A DNA stretch of 64,000 nucleotides from NCBI GenBank assembly GCA_000004985.1, contig GG738923.1. One strand, given 5' to 3'. The DNA is from Naegleria gruberi (lineage: Eukaryota). The notes under the pieces were generated by a model. That model saw nothing but the letters and a program-made list of their open reading frames with translations, was not told where the DNA came from and did no database searches. Shown piece after piece: positions 38,760-48,028 of the stretch. Made by a program: the position numbers and the translations under genes. Numbering within the stretch: position 1 is the stretch's first letter; each line of letters opens with the position of its first letter.

Positions 38760-39986
38760 CTACTGAACAGTACATTTCTTCTCCTTGTGGTTCTTGTTTG
38801 TTTCAATTTTTTGTGGGTTTTCCAAAATGTGCAAATGAGTATGTGTCAATAATCCAAGTCTCTTATCGAAATCAATTGTTCCTTCGCCTGTTTTTGCACT
38901 TGTTTCAATAAACGAGACAGCTCCTATTGCTTTTGTAAATTCAATTCCTTCCTCTTTTGAAATTGGTTCATCAACAGTAGTAGAATAAAACAAACTATTC
39001 CAGTAGAGTGAATCTTTGAGATCGTTCTTTGTGGAAACAACAACAAATGTAGCGGTAGGAGCACCAAGAGTGCATTCCCACATCAAATGCTCAACTAAAT
39101 ATTTCAAACTTGAAAAATCATTGATGGCATAGTTCATTGTAAAAAGATTTGTCTGAGGATAAGAAAGTGGTCGCAATCTATCATAATCTTCTCCACCTGC
39201 TGTGTCCCAATATGCAACAGAAAAATCTGCTTGAGTTTCAATACCATCTACTATGCACTGTACATGCTCCGTTTTTACAAAACTGTCAAATACAGTTGGT
39301 GTGTAATCTTGAGGAAAGGAATGATACCCAACCCTATTCAAGAGACAAGTTTTTCCAACAAATGTAGCACCCATAGAAACCCATTTGAGATAATGATAAC
39401 CGGTTATTGGTTGACTTTTTGGTTCTAATCTCAGTGGTTCTTGGAGAGGTGTTTGAATGGATGACTCTTCAATAAATATTTGTTGAGCAATTCTCTTTCT
39501 TATAATACTTTCACATTTAGTATTTTTAAAAGTACCATTCTCTAGGGCTATTTTTGAAATATTATCACTAATTGATCTAATATATGATATTCTCTTTTGT
39601 CTCTTTTCTTGGAAAACTTTCCAATTATTTTCATCAATTCTCTTCCAAATTTCCTTGATGAATCGAAATCGGTAATTTCCTTCTGTTTCTTTCCATCCAA
39701 TTTTCGTACACAAAACATTGTTAATTAATTCCATCTTGTTATTGATTAAATCTTTCCAAAACCAATCACTCCACGAATAAATCATCAAACATTTTCCGAA
39801 ATTAATTGTATTGATCAAAGTTTGATTATAAAATTCGTTTTGAATTTCCTCAGATTGTGGACGATAGAATAAACTGGCCAAACCATTTAATTCTACCCGA
39901 GAGAGAAACTCCAAAATATAGAGCATTACATTTTGATCGAGTTTGTTAATAGATGAAAAGAGTTCCTTCTCTGTTGATCGTTTCAT
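38760..39986 (-). CDS. F-box-like N-terminal domain fused to a divergent Rho-family small GTPase domain.
   Basis: N-terminus: MLYILEFLSRVELNGLASLFYR. The C-terminal half is a Rho/Rac-like G domain: KWVSMGATFVGKTCLL (G1), TPTVFDSF (switch I), YWDTAGGEDYDRLRPLSYPQT (G3, with Gly in place of the catalytic Gln), VVSTKNDL (G4), ETSAKT (G5). Confidence 0.6.
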   Translation of the reverse strand: MKRSTEKELFSSINKLDQNVMLYILEFLSRVELNGLASLFYRPQSEEIQNEFYNQTLINTINFGKCLMIYSWSDWFWKDLINNKMELINNVLCTKIGWKETEGNYRFRFIKEIWKRIDENNWKVFQEKRQKRISYIRSISDNISKIALENGTFKNTKCESIIRKRIAQQIFIEESSIQTPLQEPLRLEPKSQPITGYHYLKWVSMGATFVGKTCLLNRVGYHSFPQDYTPTVFDSFVKTEHVQCIVDGIETQADFSVAYWDTAGGEDYDRLRPLSYPQTNLFTMNYAINDFSSLKYLVEHLMWECTLGAPTATFVVVSTKNDLKDSLYWNSLFYSTTVDEPISKEEGIEFTKAIGAVSFIETSAKTGEGTIDFDKRLGLLTHTHLHILENPQKIETNKNHKEKKCTVQ

Positions 39987-40003: not shown

Positions 40004-41254
40004 TTAGTAAACAGGGCCACCAAAGCTATTAGAAATGATGGAAAGGCACTTTCGAAGACCAGGTGGAATAGTTGCAGATCCCTTTCTACAACTTTCCACC
40101 TTGATATGCATCTTGTCTACTTTGAATAATAGTGGTACCTCGACTCCATTTTTCATTCCTATTGTTGTAATGCACTGAGAGAGGAAGTTGTGTTCGTCAT
40201 TTGAAACAATTTTCATAGCATCAATAATCTCAGCATAAGAGTCAGACTTCCATTTTAGATTGGTGATTTCATCCATTTTGTAAACAGTTCCGAATGAGAC
40301 ACCTTCCTCACTTGATTTCTTTCTCCACATACTATGAGGGGATGGCCTGAAATGAGATTTGAGAAGTTCCATAACCTTAGAAGGATTGCTTAATTTGATG
40401 AGTGCTCCATTCTGTTGCTCAGGAATCAAGTCTCTAATTGTTATTTCATCAGGAATATTTGAATCAATATCTCTAACATCTAGAAATGAACCATGATCCA
40501 ACAAAGGAACCTCTCTTTTTGTGACAGGAATGGTGTAATTTTCGTACTTGTTTGATAATTGCTTAGAGCAGAATGGCCAAGTTATAAAAGCCTTCTTCAA
40601 TTCTTCATGATGTATGCAATGAGATCTTCTGTGTTTACAAGTATAGCCTACATCTCCCTTGACTTGATTTTCAGGAGTGAATTCTACAATCTTTAAATCA
40701 AACTTGATATCTCCATTGACATTCTTTAGTATTCTCGCAAATTTCTGCCATTCAAGACCTTCTAGCCTTTTCTTCTCATAATCTCCAAAGTTTTTAGCCA
40801 ATTTTACACTATTCTTGCAATTTATCTTGACTTTGATTCCATTAATCAATGTAACTTCAGGGGTTATCATTGTCTTGTTGATGTTTGGCTTTGTTGATTT
40901 GGCTACCTTCTCCTTTAAGGTTTCAGCCATAGATAGAACAGGCTTGATTCGATGATGATATTGATCAGTAGCCTCCCTTTGACTTGAATGATCCTTAGCC
41001 TTTAAAGTAGTCTTACTATTCTCAATGTTTGATTTTGTTATGGTGGTTCTTTGAGCCATTTTTTTTAGGTTGTTTTTTGAATTGTGACTTCCATCAGAAA
41101 TTTCAAAACTTTGATCGACAAAATGTTTTGCTTTTAGGACGGTTGAGAGTGATATTGAAGAAACGTGATTGGATGCCCTGAATAGCAGAGACATGTTCAA
41201 AACGTATCGGAGACCAAGATGAAGGTTAACCTTGTGAATTCCCAACCCTTGCAT
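40004..41254 (-). CDS. Unknown protein (416-aa ORF).
   Basis: Long ORF with no recognisable motif. The N-terminal portion is serine-rich and may belong to an upstream exon structure. Confidence 0.3.
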   Translation of the reverse strand: MQGLGIHKVNLHLGLRYVLNMSLLFRASNHVSSISLSTVLKAKHFVDQSFEISDGSHNSKNNLKKMAQRTTITKSNIENSKTTLKAKDHSSQREATDQYHHRIKPVLSMAETLKEKVAKSTKPNINKTMITPEVTLINGIKVKINCKNSVKLAKNFGDYEKKRLEGLEWQKFARILKNVNGDIKFDLKIVEFTPENQVKGDVGYTCKHRRSHCIHHEELKKAFITWPFCSKQLSNKYENYTIPVTKREVPLLDHGSFLDVRDIDSNIPDEITIRDLIPEQQNGALIKLSNPSKVMELLKSHFRPSPHSMWRKKSSEEGVSFGTVYKMDEITNLKWKSDSYAEIIDAMKIVSNDEHNFLSQCITTIGMKNGVEVPLLFKVDKMHIKVESCRKGSATIPPGLRKCLSIISNSFGGPVY

Positions 41255-42295
41255 GGGTTGTTGAATACAATATGTTATCCTGAGTTCTCAACCTCTAAAA
41301 ACCTCTCTGATTGTGAGACTATACAAGCTATTATTCTATACAACAATCACTGGTGATGTTGATATTAAATATTTTGATGATGGTGAAAACAACTATTTCA
41401 ATGATGAAGGCAAGCCTTTGGATTTTCGCGCCATTTTTTAAATTTGTTAATTTTAAAAAAGTCTTAAAAACAAGAAACAACACTCATTTTCATATCATCA
41501 TGAAATATTAATAATTTAATGATCGGATTATTGTTGGTATTATTTGTATGTACAAGAGGAGGATTAATGGATAGATTACATGGATTTAAAAATTTGCAAA
41601 ATATAATACATTGCAAAGGCAACTCGAACATAATTTGGTGATTGGAGCATGGCTTTGGCCAATGGAAGATTATACTTGTTACAACTCTTAGGGTCTAATT
41701 GCCCCAGCTGATAGCAGTAATCACTCAGGAACTGTATTGTATCTGCACGGTATTTGTGAAAGTCATTCACATTGGTCCAGTTGCTCTGAACTGTTTCTTT
41801 CCATTCCTTGTAGGAGATCGAATCAATAGTATAGAACAATTGGCCAAACTTGCATGGCTCATCGAAGAAGGAAGCATCAAAGAATAGACTCATGTTAGCT
41901 TTTAAGTAGGAGGTGTTGTGCTGTTTTTTTGTATCGCCTTTCTAGCAGAGGAGCAAATATTTTTGAATTATTTTTGCACGTTTGGAACGCACAAACAAAA
42001 TTGTTTTGGAGATTTTTGAGTTTGTGTAATTATTGTTGCTTGTAATGTATTGGATTCCAAACTCTAACAATCTATCTGCAAGTTACAATGGAAACTTGTT
42101 TGATTTGCTTCAAAACAATTGTGAATTAATTTTGTGAACTTGTGCCATTTCCATATATTTTAGAATCTAAACTTTGGGAAGATGAGATAAATGTTATCCA
42201 TGATTGATTAAAAATTTTATGAGCAAATCCAATATTTAGAATAATATACAATTTATAGTTTTCACACAGTTAGAAAAATTTTGAGATTTGTAAAA

Positions 42296-43380
42296 TTACA
42301 ATCCTAAAAGTTGTTTCTTCTTGAGTTGGAATTCTCTTTCAGTGATAATTCCCTTGTCTCTTAAATTACCAAGCTTTTCCAATTCATCCAAATTTGATCC
42401 AGAACTTGATTTGCTTGATGTTGAAGTTGATGGTTTGATTTTAACAACTTCATTCGAGATGGAACGACCAGTGTCGTGCTTGATTGAACCACCAGTTTGT
42501 TGAGAGAAGACTCTTGAATCTCCAGTATTATTGACCTTAACAACTTCATGTGAAATGGAACGACCAGTGTCGTGTTTGACAGATCCTCCTGTTTGTTGTG
42601 AGAAAACTCTTGAATCACCAGTGTTATTCACTTTAACAACCTCCTTTGAGATTGATCTTCCAGTATCATGCTTAACAGATCCACCAGTTTGTTGTGAGAC
42701 AGCTCTAGAATCTCCAGTACTCTTGACCTTAACAACTTCATTAGAAATTGATCTTCCAGTATCATGTTTAACTGAAGCAGCTCCAAATTGTTGACCAACT
42801 TCAGCATTTGCTTGTCTCAATTGTCTTTCAGTAAATTCAATTTCCTTCTTATCAGAAATCTTCAATCCCAAAGTAGGTAAATTATATCCAACTCTCTTCT
42901 GAACAACTGATCCAAAACTATATAAGGCCATAATTACGAGTGGAATGTTTTTTCCCTCATATAAATCAACACTCATAAATGTGTTATGAGTATCTAAACC
43001 TAATTCTGCAGCTGCCTTCAAGAAATAACCAATATTCTCCATACACATGAATGGCATCTTACCAGAGTTGATGGTTTTCACAATTCCTGGTTTAATCTTG
43101 TTGGCAAGTTTACATAATAAAACGCCATCTTTGAGTGATTCTTGAAAGTCGTTGGAGGAGAATTTGGTGCCAGTGACTGCTTCGATCCATTGTCTGACTT
43201 CTTTTTCTTTCTGTGGATCGTGTTTTCCTGCTTGTTTTTTGGCCTTTCGTATAGTTTTAGTTTTTTAGGTTGGAAAGAGAAAGAAACTTACTAATTCCTT
43301 GTCTAAACCGTAGACTGGTAAACCATTCTTATCATGAACGGTTGCTTGGCTTTTGTTGGTGTAGTGAGACATTTGGTGTA
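42296..43380 (-). CDS. Calponin-homology (CH) domain protein with four tandem 32-aa repeats and a SHOCT-like C-terminal motif. It has one or two introns at its 5' end (about 43082..43300).
   Basis: The CH domain reads ...KIKPGIVKTINSGKMPFMCMENIGYFLKAAAELGLD...NIPLVIMALYSFGS (compare calponin/transgelin LENIGNFIKA). Upstream in-frame exon sequence (KAKKQAGKHDPQKEKEVRQWIEAVTG...) lies on the minus strand at 43100-43260. The repeats are VKHDTGRSISNEVVKVxxTGDSRxxSQQTGGS, four copies. The C-terminus is LDELEKLGNLRDKGIITEREFQLKKKQLL. Confidence 0.55.
42437..42790. repeat. Four tandem copies of a 96-bp coding repeat inside the CH-domain gene.
   Basis: The unit ttaacaacttcat..gaacgaccagtgtcgtg..ccagtttgttg..gaatctccagt recurs with period 96 at about 90% identity. 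Confidence 0.8.
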
Positions 43381-43634
43381 TTTTTTTTGTTGATTTTTGA
43401 CGTTGAAGTATGACAGGACTTTTACTTGATGACAAGTTAATCGGATTTTTCACACTACGGTTTTTGATTTGAGCAAAATCTTCACCCATCTTTATCAAAA
43501 AACTGTTCACAAGATCTGTAAGTGAAAAAATTATCAATTTACTTTTTAGTAAATTGATAAAAATTGATAATTGAACATATTCATCATCTGAAAACTTAAT
43601 TCTATGAGAAGATGAATTTCTATTTTACAAGAAA

Positions 43635-44297
43635 ATGCAACGAGTATTCATTCCCTTCATTGTTGGTTTGTTCTGTTTATTTGTAACTATTCGAAAGGTT
43701 TCTGGAAACAATTCAAACTTTGAGAATTATTCGAAAGTTGAAGATGTAAAACTTCCATTGAATTGTAGTACTAGCATGTCAGTTGTGTTTCCAACTGAAT
43801 TGTTATTGCAATCTTTCTTACATGAAAAACATTCGAATAGCAACTTTACTTCTCTTTGGATAAATTTCATGATCGCCTCGAAAAGGGAAGGAATCGAATT
43901 GGCAGAATTTGGATTAAACTCTCAAAATTCGAATCAAGAATTTCTCTCCTTAATGCAAGAAATGAAAAATAACGCAACCGAAACCAAAACTAAACTAGAA
44001 GAATTACTTTTCACTCTAAATTTACCTACAATGAATGAAATGCAAGCACTAGTCTATGGAAACGATTGTTCTCTAAGGGCAGTTCCATTAGATTCCATTC
44101 GAGGTCCATGCGATTTACTCTTCATTTCAATTCATCGTATGTCCATGACCAAAACCATGAATCTTATGGTTATGGCATTGAACGGAGTTGACCAAAGAGT
44201 TGTTTCGATTGCTTACAATGAATTGATTACTTCTTCAAAAACAATTGGTAAACTTTTGCAGTTATCCAAAAGTTTACAATGTTATCAAACTTTGTAA
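43635..44297 (+). CDS. Secreted 4-Cys protein, paralogue A of a tandem pair. Novel family.
   Basis: Signal peptide MQRVFIPFIVGLFCLFVTI. Shares a conserved core with the next gene: KLPLNCSTSMSVVFP, NDCSLRA, RGPCD, IAYNEL. Confidence 0.5.
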   Translation: MQRVFIPFIVGLFCLFVTIRKVSGNNSNFENYSKVEDVKLPLNCSTSMSVVFPTELLLQSFLHEKHSNSNFTSLWINFMIASKREGIELAEFGLNSQNSNQEFLSLMQEMKNNATETKTKLEELLFTLNLPTMNEMQALVYGNDCSLRAVPLDSIRGPCDLLFISIHRMSMTKTMNLMVMALNGVDQRVVSIAYNELITSSKTIGKLLQLSKSLQCYQTL

Positions 44298-44457
44298 GAA
44301 GTATTGTAAGGAGAAACAAGGAGTTTCGAATATAAAGTTCCAATTGTAACTCTTTTTTAACATTATTTATGGTATTTTCTATTTTGAAACTTGGTGTTTT
44401 TGCACATTGTTCATTTTGAGTATGTTTTGAAATCCAAATAAATTCTCAAACTTTGAC

Positions 44458-45147
44458 TTGCTATTCGAAACACACAAGAAAATGAAAATAATTCTCATTG
44501 CAACCTGTCTCCTTCTTGGAGCCATCCTTGTTTCCTGCCAGCAACAACAACAACAAGGTACTGATCAAACAAGCTCAACCTCTTCCAATCAATCCAACGA
44601 TATCAAACTTCCATTGAATTGCAGCACCAGCATGTCAGTAGTCTTTCCAGCAGAAATAATTCTACAAGCCTATCTTGAAAGTGACACTGCCAATGTTACA
44701 GCTCTTTGGCTCAATATCATGCTAGCTTCCCAAAAACAAGGTGCCTCACTCACTCAATCAGCCATTTCCAAATATTCCTCCAATTCTCAATTAGTTTCAC
44801 TTTTACAAGAATTGAATGCAAACATGACTCAAATGGAACAACAACTTTCTGGATTATTCTCATCTTTGCAATTGCAACAATTACCTGACATTCAAAATCT
44901 TACCTATGGTGATGATTGTTCATTGAGAGCTGCTACAGTTGATAATTTGAGAGGTCCATGTGATTTTATATTTGTCTTGATTCATAGAATGGCAATGGCA
45001 AAGGTTGTTAACTTGTTGGCCATTTCTGAAGGTGATATTAATCAACAAGTTGGTGATATTGCTTACAATGAATTGGTCAATTCATCCAATACTATTGAAA
45101 AATTATTGCAAATTGCAAAGGCATCCAATTGCTATGCCCAACAATAA
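44458..45147 (+). CDS. Secreted 4-Cys protein, paralogue B of the tandem pair.
   Basis: Signal peptide MKIILIATCLLLGAILVSC. About 40-45% identical to 43635..44297, with the four Cys conserved. Confidence 0.5.
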   Translation: MLFETHKKMKIILIATCLLLGAILVSCQQQQQQGTDQTSSTSSNQSNDIKLPLNCSTSMSVVFPAEIILQAYLESDTANVTALWLNIMLASQKQGASLTQSAISKYSSNSQLVSLLQELNANMTQMEQQLSGLFSSLQLQQLPDIQNLTYGDDCSLRAATVDNLRGPCDFIFVLIHRMAMAKVVNLLAISEGDINQQVGDIAYNELVNSSNTIEKLLQIAKASNCYAQQ

Positions 45148-45254: not shown

Positions 45255-46928
45255 TTGTTCACACTACGGATTCCTTGGTCCGCATTTGCATTCTTTCCGT
45301 ACTTTATTTTTTTTCCAAGTGAATCTTCACTTCAATTGCAGCATGTCCATACCTTACGCATTACCTTACGCCATTTATTAGAATGTCAATTTAATCTTCT
45401 TAAATACCAACACAACATTCTCACTCCTTATTCCTCTAATTTCGAAATTCAAGTCAAAAAAATCCAATCAACTGCAGACGACCTCAAGTTTACAAGCAAT
45501 AACAACAACTTTCAATTTATTCGCACAATATTACATAGCATGAAAAATTTCAAACAATCCCGCGCTTCTTTTTCTTCCTTGATTGCTTCAACAACATCAA
45601 ACACAACACGCACCAATGTTGTTAGTTCTGCTGCTGCTGTTGGTAGCAAGAGAAATATCTTGACTATTCAAAATAGGCTTCCGATTCTTTTAAACAATAA
45701 GAAAAATCAAACATCCACAACATTATCATCAGTATTGATAAACAATATTATCAATAACAGCAATAACAAGTATTACTACAACTACTCGACAACAACACAC
45801 TTTCCAAGAGGAGCTTCCACTCGTTTGCAAACAACATCTTCCGAAGATTCTTGCCATCATACAATTATAACTACAATCATGTCTTCTTCTGCAGATCAAC
45901 AACATCATCACGAACATAATGGCCAATGCTGTGGTGGAAATCATCAACAAGCACAACACTTGACTGTTAACGATGTATCACCTAACACTCTTTCTGGTGA
46001 TGAATCAGAATTCAATTCGGGATCCTCTCATAACACAAAGAAGAAAGTCTCTGGTATTAGTATTAAGAAGAAATCATCTACTTCATCATTGGGTGAAGCA
46101 GGTTGTTCCCATCAAATTGATTATAGTCAACTTAGTGCTGCTAATAATCAAAATCCAAATCTTTCTCGTCCAGAACCATCTGATCCTAATGTTTCTTACA
46201 CCATTGAAGGTTTATTACAAAAGAAACCAGCTGGTATTAATGTACCTATTCAATTCGAAGAAGAATTCACTGAAGAAGAACTTGTTGCTCAACAAAGTTA
46301 TGAAAAGTTGTTGAATAACAATAAGGAATTTGTTTCAGACAAGTTGGGTTCTGATCCTGACTTTTTCAATAGAATCAAGGATGTTCAAAAACCAGATTAC
46401 ATGTTAATTGGTTGCAGTGACAGTCGTGTACCTCCTGATCAATTGACCAAGACCCAACCAGGTCAAATTTTCATTCACAGAAATGTTGCCAACTTGGTTG
46501 TCAATACTGATGTTAATGCCATGTCAGTTTTACAATATGCTGTTGAAGTTTTGCAAGTTAAACACGTCATTGTTATGGGTCACACTCGTTGTGGTGGTGT
46601 TATGGCTGCTTTGACAAACAAGCATTTGGGTTTAATTGACCACTGGTTGAGAAATATTAAGGATGTTTATCGTCTCCACAAGGCAGAAGTTGATGCCATT
46701 GAGGATAAGGATAAAAAGATCCACCGTATGATTGAACTCAATATTATTGAACAAACTCTCAATCTCTGTAAGACTAGTGTTGTACAAAATGCTTGGGCCA
46801 AGGGAAGAACATTACACGTCCATGGTTGGTTGTGTGATATTGAAACTGGTCTCATTAAGGACTTGGAAATTGAAGAAAAGCGTTGGAAGGAAATTGAAAG
46901 CATTTACAAATACGATTTTGAACTCTAA
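45255..46928 (+). CDS. Beta-class carbonic anhydrase. The catalytic domain is C-terminal and follows a long low-complexity (N/S/T/H/Q-rich) N-terminal region. The true start is uncertain.
   Basis: Beta-CA motifs: CSDSRVPPDQ and HTRCGGV. The catalytic domain spans roughly 46200..46928. The upstream 300 aa are in frame and low-complexity, and an internal Met start is possible. Confidence 0.6.
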   Translation: MFTLRIPWSAFAFFPYFIFFPSESSLQLQHVHTLRITLRHLLECQFNLLKYQHNILTPYSSNFEIQVKKIQSTADDLKFTSNNNNFQFIRTILHSMKNFKQSRASFSSLIASTTSNTTRTNVVSSAAAVGSKRNILTIQNRLPILLNNKKNQTSTTLSSVLINNIINNSNNKYYYNYSTTTHFPRGASTRLQTTSSEDSCHHTIITTIMSSSADQQHHHEHNGQCCGGNHQQAQHLTVNDVSPNTLSGDESEFNSGSSHNTKKKVSGISIKKKSSTSSLGEAGCSHQIDYSQLSAANNQNPNLSRPEPSDPNVSYTIEGLLQKKPAGINVPIQFEEEFTEEELVAQQSYEKLLNNNKEFVSDKLGSDPDFFNRIKDVQKPDYMLIGCSDSRVPPDQLTKTQPGQIFIHRNVANLVVNTDVNAMSVLQYAVEVLQVKHVIVMGHTRCGGVMAALTNKHLGLIDHWLRNIKDVYRLHKAEVDAIEDKDKKIHRMIELNIIEQTLNLCKTSVVQNAWAKGRTLHVHGWLCDIETGLIKDLEIEEKRWKEIESIYKYDFEL

Positions 46929-47119: not shown

Positions 47120-48028
47120 TTACTTCAAAAAGAGTTGACTATTCTTTTCAACATATTGTTCAAAGGTCAATAAACCAGGGAATAATTCTCTTGCTTCTTT
47201 AACAGCTTGTTGCTCATTATCTTGATAATAGCCACATTCATTAAAGTACATGAACATATTCTTTGCTTCAGAACCCATTCTTTGACCAACAGTTTCGGCA
47301 TCCATTGCAACGTATTGAGTTGGGACATTTAATACTGTAGTGCAAATATCAGCCATTTCCTTAAGGGATACATAATCACCAGCAGTAAGGAGCTTTCTTC
47401 CATTGTAATTTTCTGGATGCTTGAATACTTCAGAAACAACAATTCCCAAATCATCAACTCCAAATACTGGAAGTTTTCTGTCAGTATTCACACCAGCAAA
47501 GATCATGGCACTAGCTCTGTCTTCATTCAATCTGAACATCATTCCAGGAAGATTGTCAGCGAAAAATGGTGGGTAAACAAAAGTCTTGAATGGAATGTTG
47601 GTCTTTCTTGCTTCTTGCTCAACCTTATTCTTGTTAGTGAAATGAGGAACTGAAATTTTACCACCAGATGCCTTAGTGACATCATCCAATGAACTGAAAA
47701 CAAAATGTTGAACATTATTCTTAACAGCTGCTTCAACCAAATTCAATCCTTCGGTCAATTCCTTTTCATGATCAACTGAACCAAATCTTCCTGGAGTTGT
47801 TACACCAAAAACACCATAAGCACCTTTGAATGCCTCTGCAAGAGCTTCCTTATTACTCATATTGCATGAAACAATTTCAACACCTTGTTCGGCAAGTTCT
47901 TTGGCTCTGGCTGAGTTGGAATCTCTGGTAATTCCTCTCAATTTCCAATTGCCTTGCTTTTGAAGATGCTTAATGACACTTCCTCCTTGTTTTCCAGTAG
48001 CTCCAATGACAACAATTAATTTACTCAT
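47120..48028 (-). CDS. NmrA-like NAD(P)-binding protein (atypical SDR).
   Basis: The N-terminal Rossmann motif is MSKLIVVIGATGKQGGSV. Its length and profile are typical of the NmrA/HSCARG family. Confidence 0.65.
   Translation of the reverse strand: MSKLIVVIGATGKQGGSVIKHLQKQGNWKLRGITRDSNSARAKELAEQGVEIVSCNMSNKEALAEAFKGAYGVFGVTTPGRFGSVDHEKELTEGLNLVEAAVKNNVQHFVFSSLDDVTKASGGKISVPHFTNKNKVEQEARKTNIPFKTFVYPPFFADNLPGMMFRLNEDRASAMIFAGVNTDRKLPVFGVDDLGIVVSEVFKHPENYNGRKLLTAGDYVSLKEMADICTTVLNVPTQYVAMDAETVGQRMGSEAKNMFMYFNECGYYQDNEQQAVKEARELFPGLLTFEQYVEKNSQLFLK

Follow-up and report, generated by a model that had tools for sequence, protein, structure and literature searches.

The 64,000-nucleotide stretch of Naegleria gruberi DNA analysed here (contig GG738923.1 of assembly GCA_000004985.1; hereafter the window) carries on its minus strand a two-exon gene encoding a protein of 342 residues. 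In this protein a calponin-homology (CH) domain is followed by four short tandem units, a Ser/Thr-rich linker and, at the extreme C-terminus, a SHOCT domain. From the start codon onwards, the features of the gene are as follows.

42296..43372, minus strand: whole gene, ATG to stop; its 342-residue product is an exact database entry.
43292..43372, minus strand: exon 1, codons 1-27 (MSHYTNKSQATVHDKNGLPVYGLDKEL), as confirmed by the exact database match of the spliced product.
43244..43291, minus strand: phase-0 spliceosomal intron of 48 nucleotides, GTAAGT...AG, with an in-frame TAA.
42296..43243, minus strand: exon 2, codons 28-342 and the TAA stop codon (42296..42298).
42899..43213, minus strand: calponin-type (type 3) CH domain, residues 38-142; Pfam PF00307, E = 1.8e-22; best PDB match calponin 1 (1WYP), E = 1.8e-24; predicted local distance difference test score (pLDDT) from AlphaFold2 ~90.
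42725..42799, minus strand: repeat core 1, residues 176-200 (VGQQFGAASVKHDTGRSISNEVVKV), at the position of the first CLIK repeat in chytrid calponin-like proteins.
42629..42703, minus strand: repeat core 2, residues 208-232 (AVSQQTGGSVKHDTGRSISKEVVKV).
42533..42607, minus strand: repeat core 3, residues 240-264 (VFSQQTGGSVKHDTGRSISHEVVKV).
42437..42511, minus strand: repeat core 4, residues 272-296 (VFSQQTGGSIKHDTGRSISNEVVKI).
42441..42766, minus strand: DNA tandem array with a period of 96 bp, found by Tandem Repeats Finder (TRF); in the register of the initial annotation its units are 42772..42677, 42676..42581, 42580..42485 and a partial unit from 42484.
42389..42436, minus strand: Ser/Thr-rich linker, residues 297-312, whose length and sequence vary within the family.
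42305..42388, minus strand: SHOCT domain (PF09851), residues 313-340 of 342; predicted helix-turn-helix (helix 1, residues 310-323; helix 2, residues 329-339; pLDDT 83-87), two residues short of the end of the protein in ...LLGL.

Splicing is required, since the intron contains an in-frame TAA. By exact-sequence look-up the spliced protein is EFC37010.1 / XP_002669754.1 / UniProt D2W1Q9 of N. gruberi NEG-M, named 'calponin homology domain-containing protein'. Like it, the products of four intronless genes nearby in the window are NEG-M entries, all on one 326,815-bp scaffold. A metagenome contig (ERR1078381) from a second strain is 99.08% identical to positions 42247..44421 of the window and encodes an identical four-unit open reading frame (ORF), with two synonymous differences across 253 codons of ORF. 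Because this contig is independent, the repeat array is genuine, and the possibility, raised in the initial annotation, of an artefact of assembly is refuted. No paper on EFC37010.1 or its orthologues was found in the searchable literature; the gene is already annotated but unstudied.

The calponin/transgelin-type CH domain proposed in the initial annotation is confirmed by the PF00307 match and by the nearest solved structures, which by sequence are the CH domains of calponin 1, calponin 2, calponin alpha and transgelin-2. In calponin, transgelin (SM22), yeast Scp1 and fission-yeast Stg1 there is one type-3 CH domain, with CLIK repeats after it. The N. gruberi protein likewise has a single N-terminal type-3 CH domain, and shares with these proteins the N-terminal motif YGLD..EL...K.D...E..VR.WIE. 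The order of parts is also that of the calponin/transgelin family, with the CH domain followed by a conserved F[ST]E.QL linker and then by short repeats in tandem, for which disorder is predicted; in the window protein pLDDT is < 50 over residues 180-307, which span units and linker (AlphaFold2, family alignment). It differs from the family in the repeats themselves, which have a 32-residue period and the motif SQQTGGS-VKHDTGRSIS-xEVVKV without a PF00402 match, and in the added C-terminal SHOCT domain. The gene product is a Heterolobosea-specific member of the calponin/transgelin family.

The C-terminus is, as initially suggested, a SHOCT domain, a type of domain otherwise characteristic of bacteria. 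The match to PF09851 covers the whole model (1-28/28) and reaches 34.1 bits (E = 2.1e-08), above the Pfam gathering score of 27; the segment is short, C-terminal and, in the AlphaFold2 prediction, made of two helices. SHOCT as defined in 2013 (PMC3581485) is matched in C-terminal position, in the predicted two-helix hairpin and in a sequence close to the family consensus; what differs is its partner in the N. gruberi protein, a cytoskeletal module of eukaryotic type. That paper reported 14 SHOCT proteins in N. gruberi, one of them with eight copies; the word 'calponin' is absent from its main text, and its supplement has no table of CH/Naegleria architectures in text form. SHOCT architectures were taken from a search of 1.84 billion representative sequences and from Pfam scans. 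A profile of the SHOCT segments of the CH family matched 25,959 representative clusters at E ≤ 0.001, while an earlier SHOCT profile search gave 855 SHOCT proteins, all short. Among single-copy matches, the nearest are DUF4429/bPH, zinc ribbon and Band 7 proteins of prokaryotic type, with near-identical tails (...LEKLA.LRDKGIITEEEFQAKKKQILGL). Named short examples, from a cyanobacterium and a Thermoplasmata archaeon, have 60-80% identity.

CH domain, units, Ser/Thr linker and SHOCT occur together in more than 40 proteins, all ending ...ILGL. Members include N. fowleri FDP41_001788 and Willaertia magna ABK040_010671 (each with three units, which differ by position), three Acrasis kona paralogues with two to four units (among them 'myophilin' and AKO1_008036) and Pharyngomonas kirbyi EP00761_P011977. 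If Pharyngomonas is the deepest heterolobosean branch, the CH+SHOCT architecture predates the radiation of the group. An orthologue from a sister species of Naegleria (L003 1679..2647, JGI metagenome 3300002220) has a 114-nucleotide intron at the same position as that of the window gene. Because this intron is open in frame, the gene was called as an unspliced protein of 322 residues; the spliced product has 284 residues and only two units.

Outside the CH core, SHOCT is the best conserved segment of the family (77% mean column identity), with L318, L321, G325, F332, K335, K336 and the terminal LGL near-invariant. Among the CH relatives retrieved it is limited to Heterolobosea-type sequences; relatives from chytrids, Anaeramoeba and dinoflagellates lack SHOCT and have a CH domain, in some cases followed by canonical CLIK repeats. 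The initial annotation had described the architecture as an unfamiliar one. It is indeed real and undiscussed in the searchable literature, but it is not unique, being found throughout Heterolobosea, and Pfam assignments of CH with SHOCT are already in databases. The protein is thus a conserved, database-annotated and unstudied Heterolobosea-wide variant of the calponin family.

The tandem units lie where other members of the family have CLIK repeats. A BLASTP alignment with the chytrid 'Muscle-specific protein 20' (P0047; 46% identity, E = 3e-54) is collinear, running through the CH domain and the F[ST]E.QL linker to P0047's PF00402 repeat, window unit 1 and then unit 2. CH-only relatives (P0047, P0054, P0058 and P0060) match PF00402. 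Two SHOCT-bearing proteins are intermediate, with weak and partial CLIK-like matches: P0043 contains GGATQAGMRDTSREVVKV, and in P0218 the sequence G.ANQSGMR.GAREVIK occurs three times. Descent of the units from CLIK repeats is plausible from these alignments, although not demonstrated.

The CLIK repeats known from calponin, transgelin/Scp1 and UNC-87 are F-actin-binding elements, and proteins with more repeats bind or bundle filaments more strongly. In Caenorhabditis elegans UNC-87 and in multi-CLIK calponins, several short actin-binding repeats stand in tandem and their copy number sets the strength of filament binding and bundling. UNC-87 differs from the window protein in having canonical CLIK repeats and neither CH domain nor SHOCT, and these proteins serve as a functional analogy for the four units. 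Most likely the window protein, like calponin, transgelin/Scp1 and UNC-87, binds the side of F-actin through its post-CH region and tandem units; more units would then give higher avidity, so that the number of units would tune binding. The SHOCT hairpin would act as an autonomous module adding a second valency, most likely self-association, by which a side-binding protein would come to bundle or cross-link filaments in the amoeboid cortex. Near-identical SHOCT domains on unrelated proteins of bacteria, archaea and this eukaryote indicate that the activity is probably self-contained, the tail being present also on a CRP-type protein with two LIM domains (P0286, below), and retention of SHOCT where units have been lost (no unit in P0044, one each in P0043 and P0045) is counted in favour of the proposal. 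Taken whole, a bundler or cross-linker that combines side-binding to F-actin with self-association through SHOCT has, in our estimate, an even chance of being correct.

Several results weigh against it. No solved homologue was found in PDB searches with the SHOCT tail or the SHOCT profile, and the searchable literature yielded no experimental study of EFC37010.1 or any orthologue. In the only published test, a bacterial SHOCT fused to domains 3 and 4 of CD4 (CD4d3+4) did not oligomerise by size exclusion (PMC3581485). PF00402 has no match at E ≤ 10 in the window protein or in 12 SHOCT-bearing relatives, P0043 and P0218 included, so that the family's usual PF00402 repeat C-terminal to the CH domain is missing. 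Alignment of the unit profile with the CLIK profile (hhalign) scored 4.11, compared with 3.15 ± 1.6 for column shuffles, and 54 of 200 shuffles reached 4.11. A hidden Markov model (HMM) of 97 heterolobosean units gave only fragmentary matches to CH+CLIK proteins (IGLQMG / FDNSRNIVK), which argues against identity of the units with CLIK repeats. The comparison with calponin CLIK repeats that the initial annotation had recommended therefore finds no statistical match, and actin binding by the units is argued from their position and from the intermediate sequences only.

The SHOCT tail may instead be a membrane anchor. On this reading, which we regard as possible but unlikely, the amphipathic two-helix tail would lie on the inner leaflet of the plasma membrane and tether cortical F-actin rather than bundle it. 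Comparative genomics has predicted an anchoring role for SHOCT and SHOCT-like domains, which would hold disparate soluble domains at the inner membrane leaflet (PMC11237479, 2024). The negative oligomerisation test (PMC3581485) points the same way, as do the basic and hydrophobic character of helix 2 (FQLKKKQLLGL) and the membrane association of prokaryotic SHOCT partners such as Band 7. However, the published anchoring is itself a prediction, helix 1 is acidic (LDELEKL), and the conserved charges E316, E331, K335 and K336 resemble a specific protein interface more than a face inserted into lipid.

A role for SHOCT as a docking tag is a more doubtful alternative. Here single tags on calponin-like and LIM/CRP-like actin-binding proteins would bind multivalent heterolobosean scaffolds made of many SHOCT units. 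Candidate scaffolds exist: P0201-P0206, in which 6-9 SHOCT units are the only Pfam domains, are the best matches to the family's SHOCT profile among all representatives searched, although copy number inflates the summed scores of multi-unit proteins. P0201 (L006 2001..5193; GCA_026419775.2, contig JAOPGA020000797.1) has 1049 residues and about nine SHOCT units joined by Pro/Thr/Gln-rich linkers, and is encoded in a eukaryotic genome beside eukaryotic genes; an eight-copy SHOCT protein is reported for N. gruberi (PMC3581485). A candidate tagged partner of another class is P0286 (L005 420..1142; Logan SRR34294544), in which a CRP-type pair of LIM domains takes the place of the CH domain and units of the window protein and is followed, after a Ser/Gly-rich linker, by a near-identical C-terminal SHOCT (LEKLAALRDKGILTKEEFEAKKKQILGI). 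CRP-type proteins with two LIM domains are actin-associated. P0286 comes, however, from an environmental contig, and the only homotypic test of SHOCT was negative (PMC3581485). As separate observations, P0201 also has a repeated 'FLNNIPAS...' domain that is common to P0202 and P0260, and a second LIM+SHOCT protein was present among 78 scanned.

Heterolobosea may have joined a self-contained SHOCT module of prokaryotic type to at least two classes of F-actin-binding protein (calponin-like and CRP-type LIM) and may also have evolved poly-SHOCT proteins. That these together form a lineage-specific, SHOCT-mediated system for cross-linking or anchoring the actin cortex is a tentative suggestion, which we hold with low confidence. 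If true, it would offer the first tractable functional read-out for SHOCT, in the form of filament bundling or cortical targeting. With 25,959 representative clusters matching the family profile, SHOCT is among the most widespread domains without known function, and it is absent from the usual model organisms. In Naegleria, whose crawling depends entirely on actin, SHOCT is joined under strong constraint to a cytoskeletal module that is well understood, and the protein is an experimentally tractable handle on that function. The protein is also a candidate actin regulator conserved across the lineage, including the pathogen N. fowleri, and unstudied so far.

The initial annotation had taken the 96-bp array as recently expanded or under concerted evolution, with a likely copy-number polymorphism. 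On this view it would be an unstable coding minisatellite, of interest mainly for its variation in copy number. The sequence of the units makes this improbable. TRF reports a period of 96 bp, 3.4 copies, 81% matches and a score of 393. The four 32-residue repeats originally described are present as four complete 25-residue cores with 7-residue spacers, in a register shifted by 9-10 residues; in the original register the fourth is a half unit (16/32 residues). The nucleotide identity of about 90% given there was too high, since the three full units (R1-R3) are 83, 81 and 77% identical in pairwise comparison, in keeping with the TRF value.

Divergence is concentrated at synonymous sites. R2 and R3 are identical at 31/32 residues and share 12/32 third codon positions, with a proportion of synonymous differences (pS) of 0.82, which is saturated, and a proportion of nonsynonymous differences (pN) of 0.04 (Nei-Gojobori). 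By the same method pS is 0.47 for R1-R2 and 0.51 for R1-R3. Across unit pairs pN is 0.04-0.09 against pS of 0.47-0.82, and the encoded units are 84-97% identical; the units of a recently expanded minisatellite would be near-identical at synonymous sites. The non-repeat part of the gene, compared with the sister-species orthologue (L003), has a protein identity of 82% and a pS of 0.78, so R2 and R3 differ about as much at synonymous sites as Naegleria species do. With synonymous sites half to fully saturated and the protein near-identical, the units are duplicates of considerable age that purifying selection has preserved, not recently expanded or homogenised, and the initial inference of recent expansion or concerted evolution fails. 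Tandem coding units can thus be 'perfect' in protein and old in DNA, a caution against reading recent expansion from protein identity.

What does favour the minisatellite view is a second NEG-M protein, the best database match of the window protein. EFC36106.1 / D2W495 'AM1a' (NAEGRDRAFT_76225), encoded on a 44,269-bp scaffold, has the same architecture with 310 residues and three units, and is identical to the 342-residue protein but for one absent unit. 'AM1a' is presumably a name from the amoeboid-motility gene set of the N. gruberi genome paper. A splicing artefact as the origin of this twin is rejected: all 37 possible 96-nucleotide excisions between the two coding sequences were tested and none has GT..AG ends (0/37), so EFC36106.1 is a genuine three-unit sequence. 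The absent unit is bounded by the 5' segments of R1 and R2, which share a 20-nucleotide identical run and are identical at 27/30 positions. Such boundaries are those expected of unequal exchange, which the 20-nucleotide identical runs at the 5' ends of R1/R2 and of R3/R4 could support. The twin may be the other allele or a very recent paralogue; Naegleria has been described as a heterozygous diploid (PMC9928731).

Periodicity in DNA is also confined to the N. gruberi lineage, as no tandem repeat is found at the same TRF threshold in the orthologues of N. fowleri or the sister species (L003). All units of N. gruberi share the motifs KHDTGRSIS and QQTGGS, whereas those of N. fowleri and Willaertia differ by position. 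However, the extra unit R1 differs from both R2 and R3 at 5/32 residues and is therefore not a fresh copy, and the second strain (ERR1078381; 99.1% identical) has four units like the window gene, against three in the NEG-M twin. An HMM of the unit finds one unit in 2 members of the family, two in 18, three in 16 and four in 5. The predicted variation in copy number is thus partly supported: the 342- and 310-residue proteins of one assembly differ in it and relatives carry 0-4 units, but the array is not a homogeneous, unstable one. Copy number drifts (0-4) through occasional unequal exchange in an old array.

A chance resemblance of a charged helical stretch to SHOCT, an origin of the gene in contaminating bacterial DNA and a faulty assembly are all effectively refuted: SHOCT has only 28 residues of simple composition, but its score exceeds the Pfam gathering cut-off, the tail is conserved in 40+ orthologues with 60-80% identity to prokaryotic SHOCT proteins, the conserved spliceosomal intron and the eukaryotic genes around it on the 326,815-bp N. 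gruberi scaffold exclude contamination, and a second, independent assembly agrees with the sequence.

The neighbouring genes (beta-carbonic anhydrase, NmrA-like, Ras/Roc GTPase, F-box and orphans) provide no functional context for the CH-SHOCT gene. Directly downstream of it lies an ORF of 416 residues, complete from ATG to stop (40004..41254, minus strand). It has no Pfam match, and a search of 5.8 billion proteins, the N. gruberi proteome included, gave no homologue at E ≤ 1e-10; the ORF is an orphan gene missed by annotation or no gene at all. On the other side, two adjacent intronless ORFs of 220 and 229 residues (43635..44297 and 44458..45147, both plus strand) are paralogues with 48% identity. 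They have hydrophobic N-termini, share a KLPLNCSTSMSVVFP motif and belong to no Pfam family, and form a tandem pair of orphan, possibly secreted proteins.

A Ras/Roc-type GTPase with a 200-residue N-terminal extension is encoded at 38760..39986 (minus strand), and a beta-class carbonic anhydrase at 45540..46928 (plus strand), in which a long N-terminal extension precedes Pro_CA (residues 287-438 of 462). A paralogue (EFC37084.1) of the NmrA-like gene (47120..48028, minus strand; EFC37011.1), 90% identical to it, lies on another scaffold, of 209,908 bp, so that this neighbourhood is in part present a second time in the assembly.

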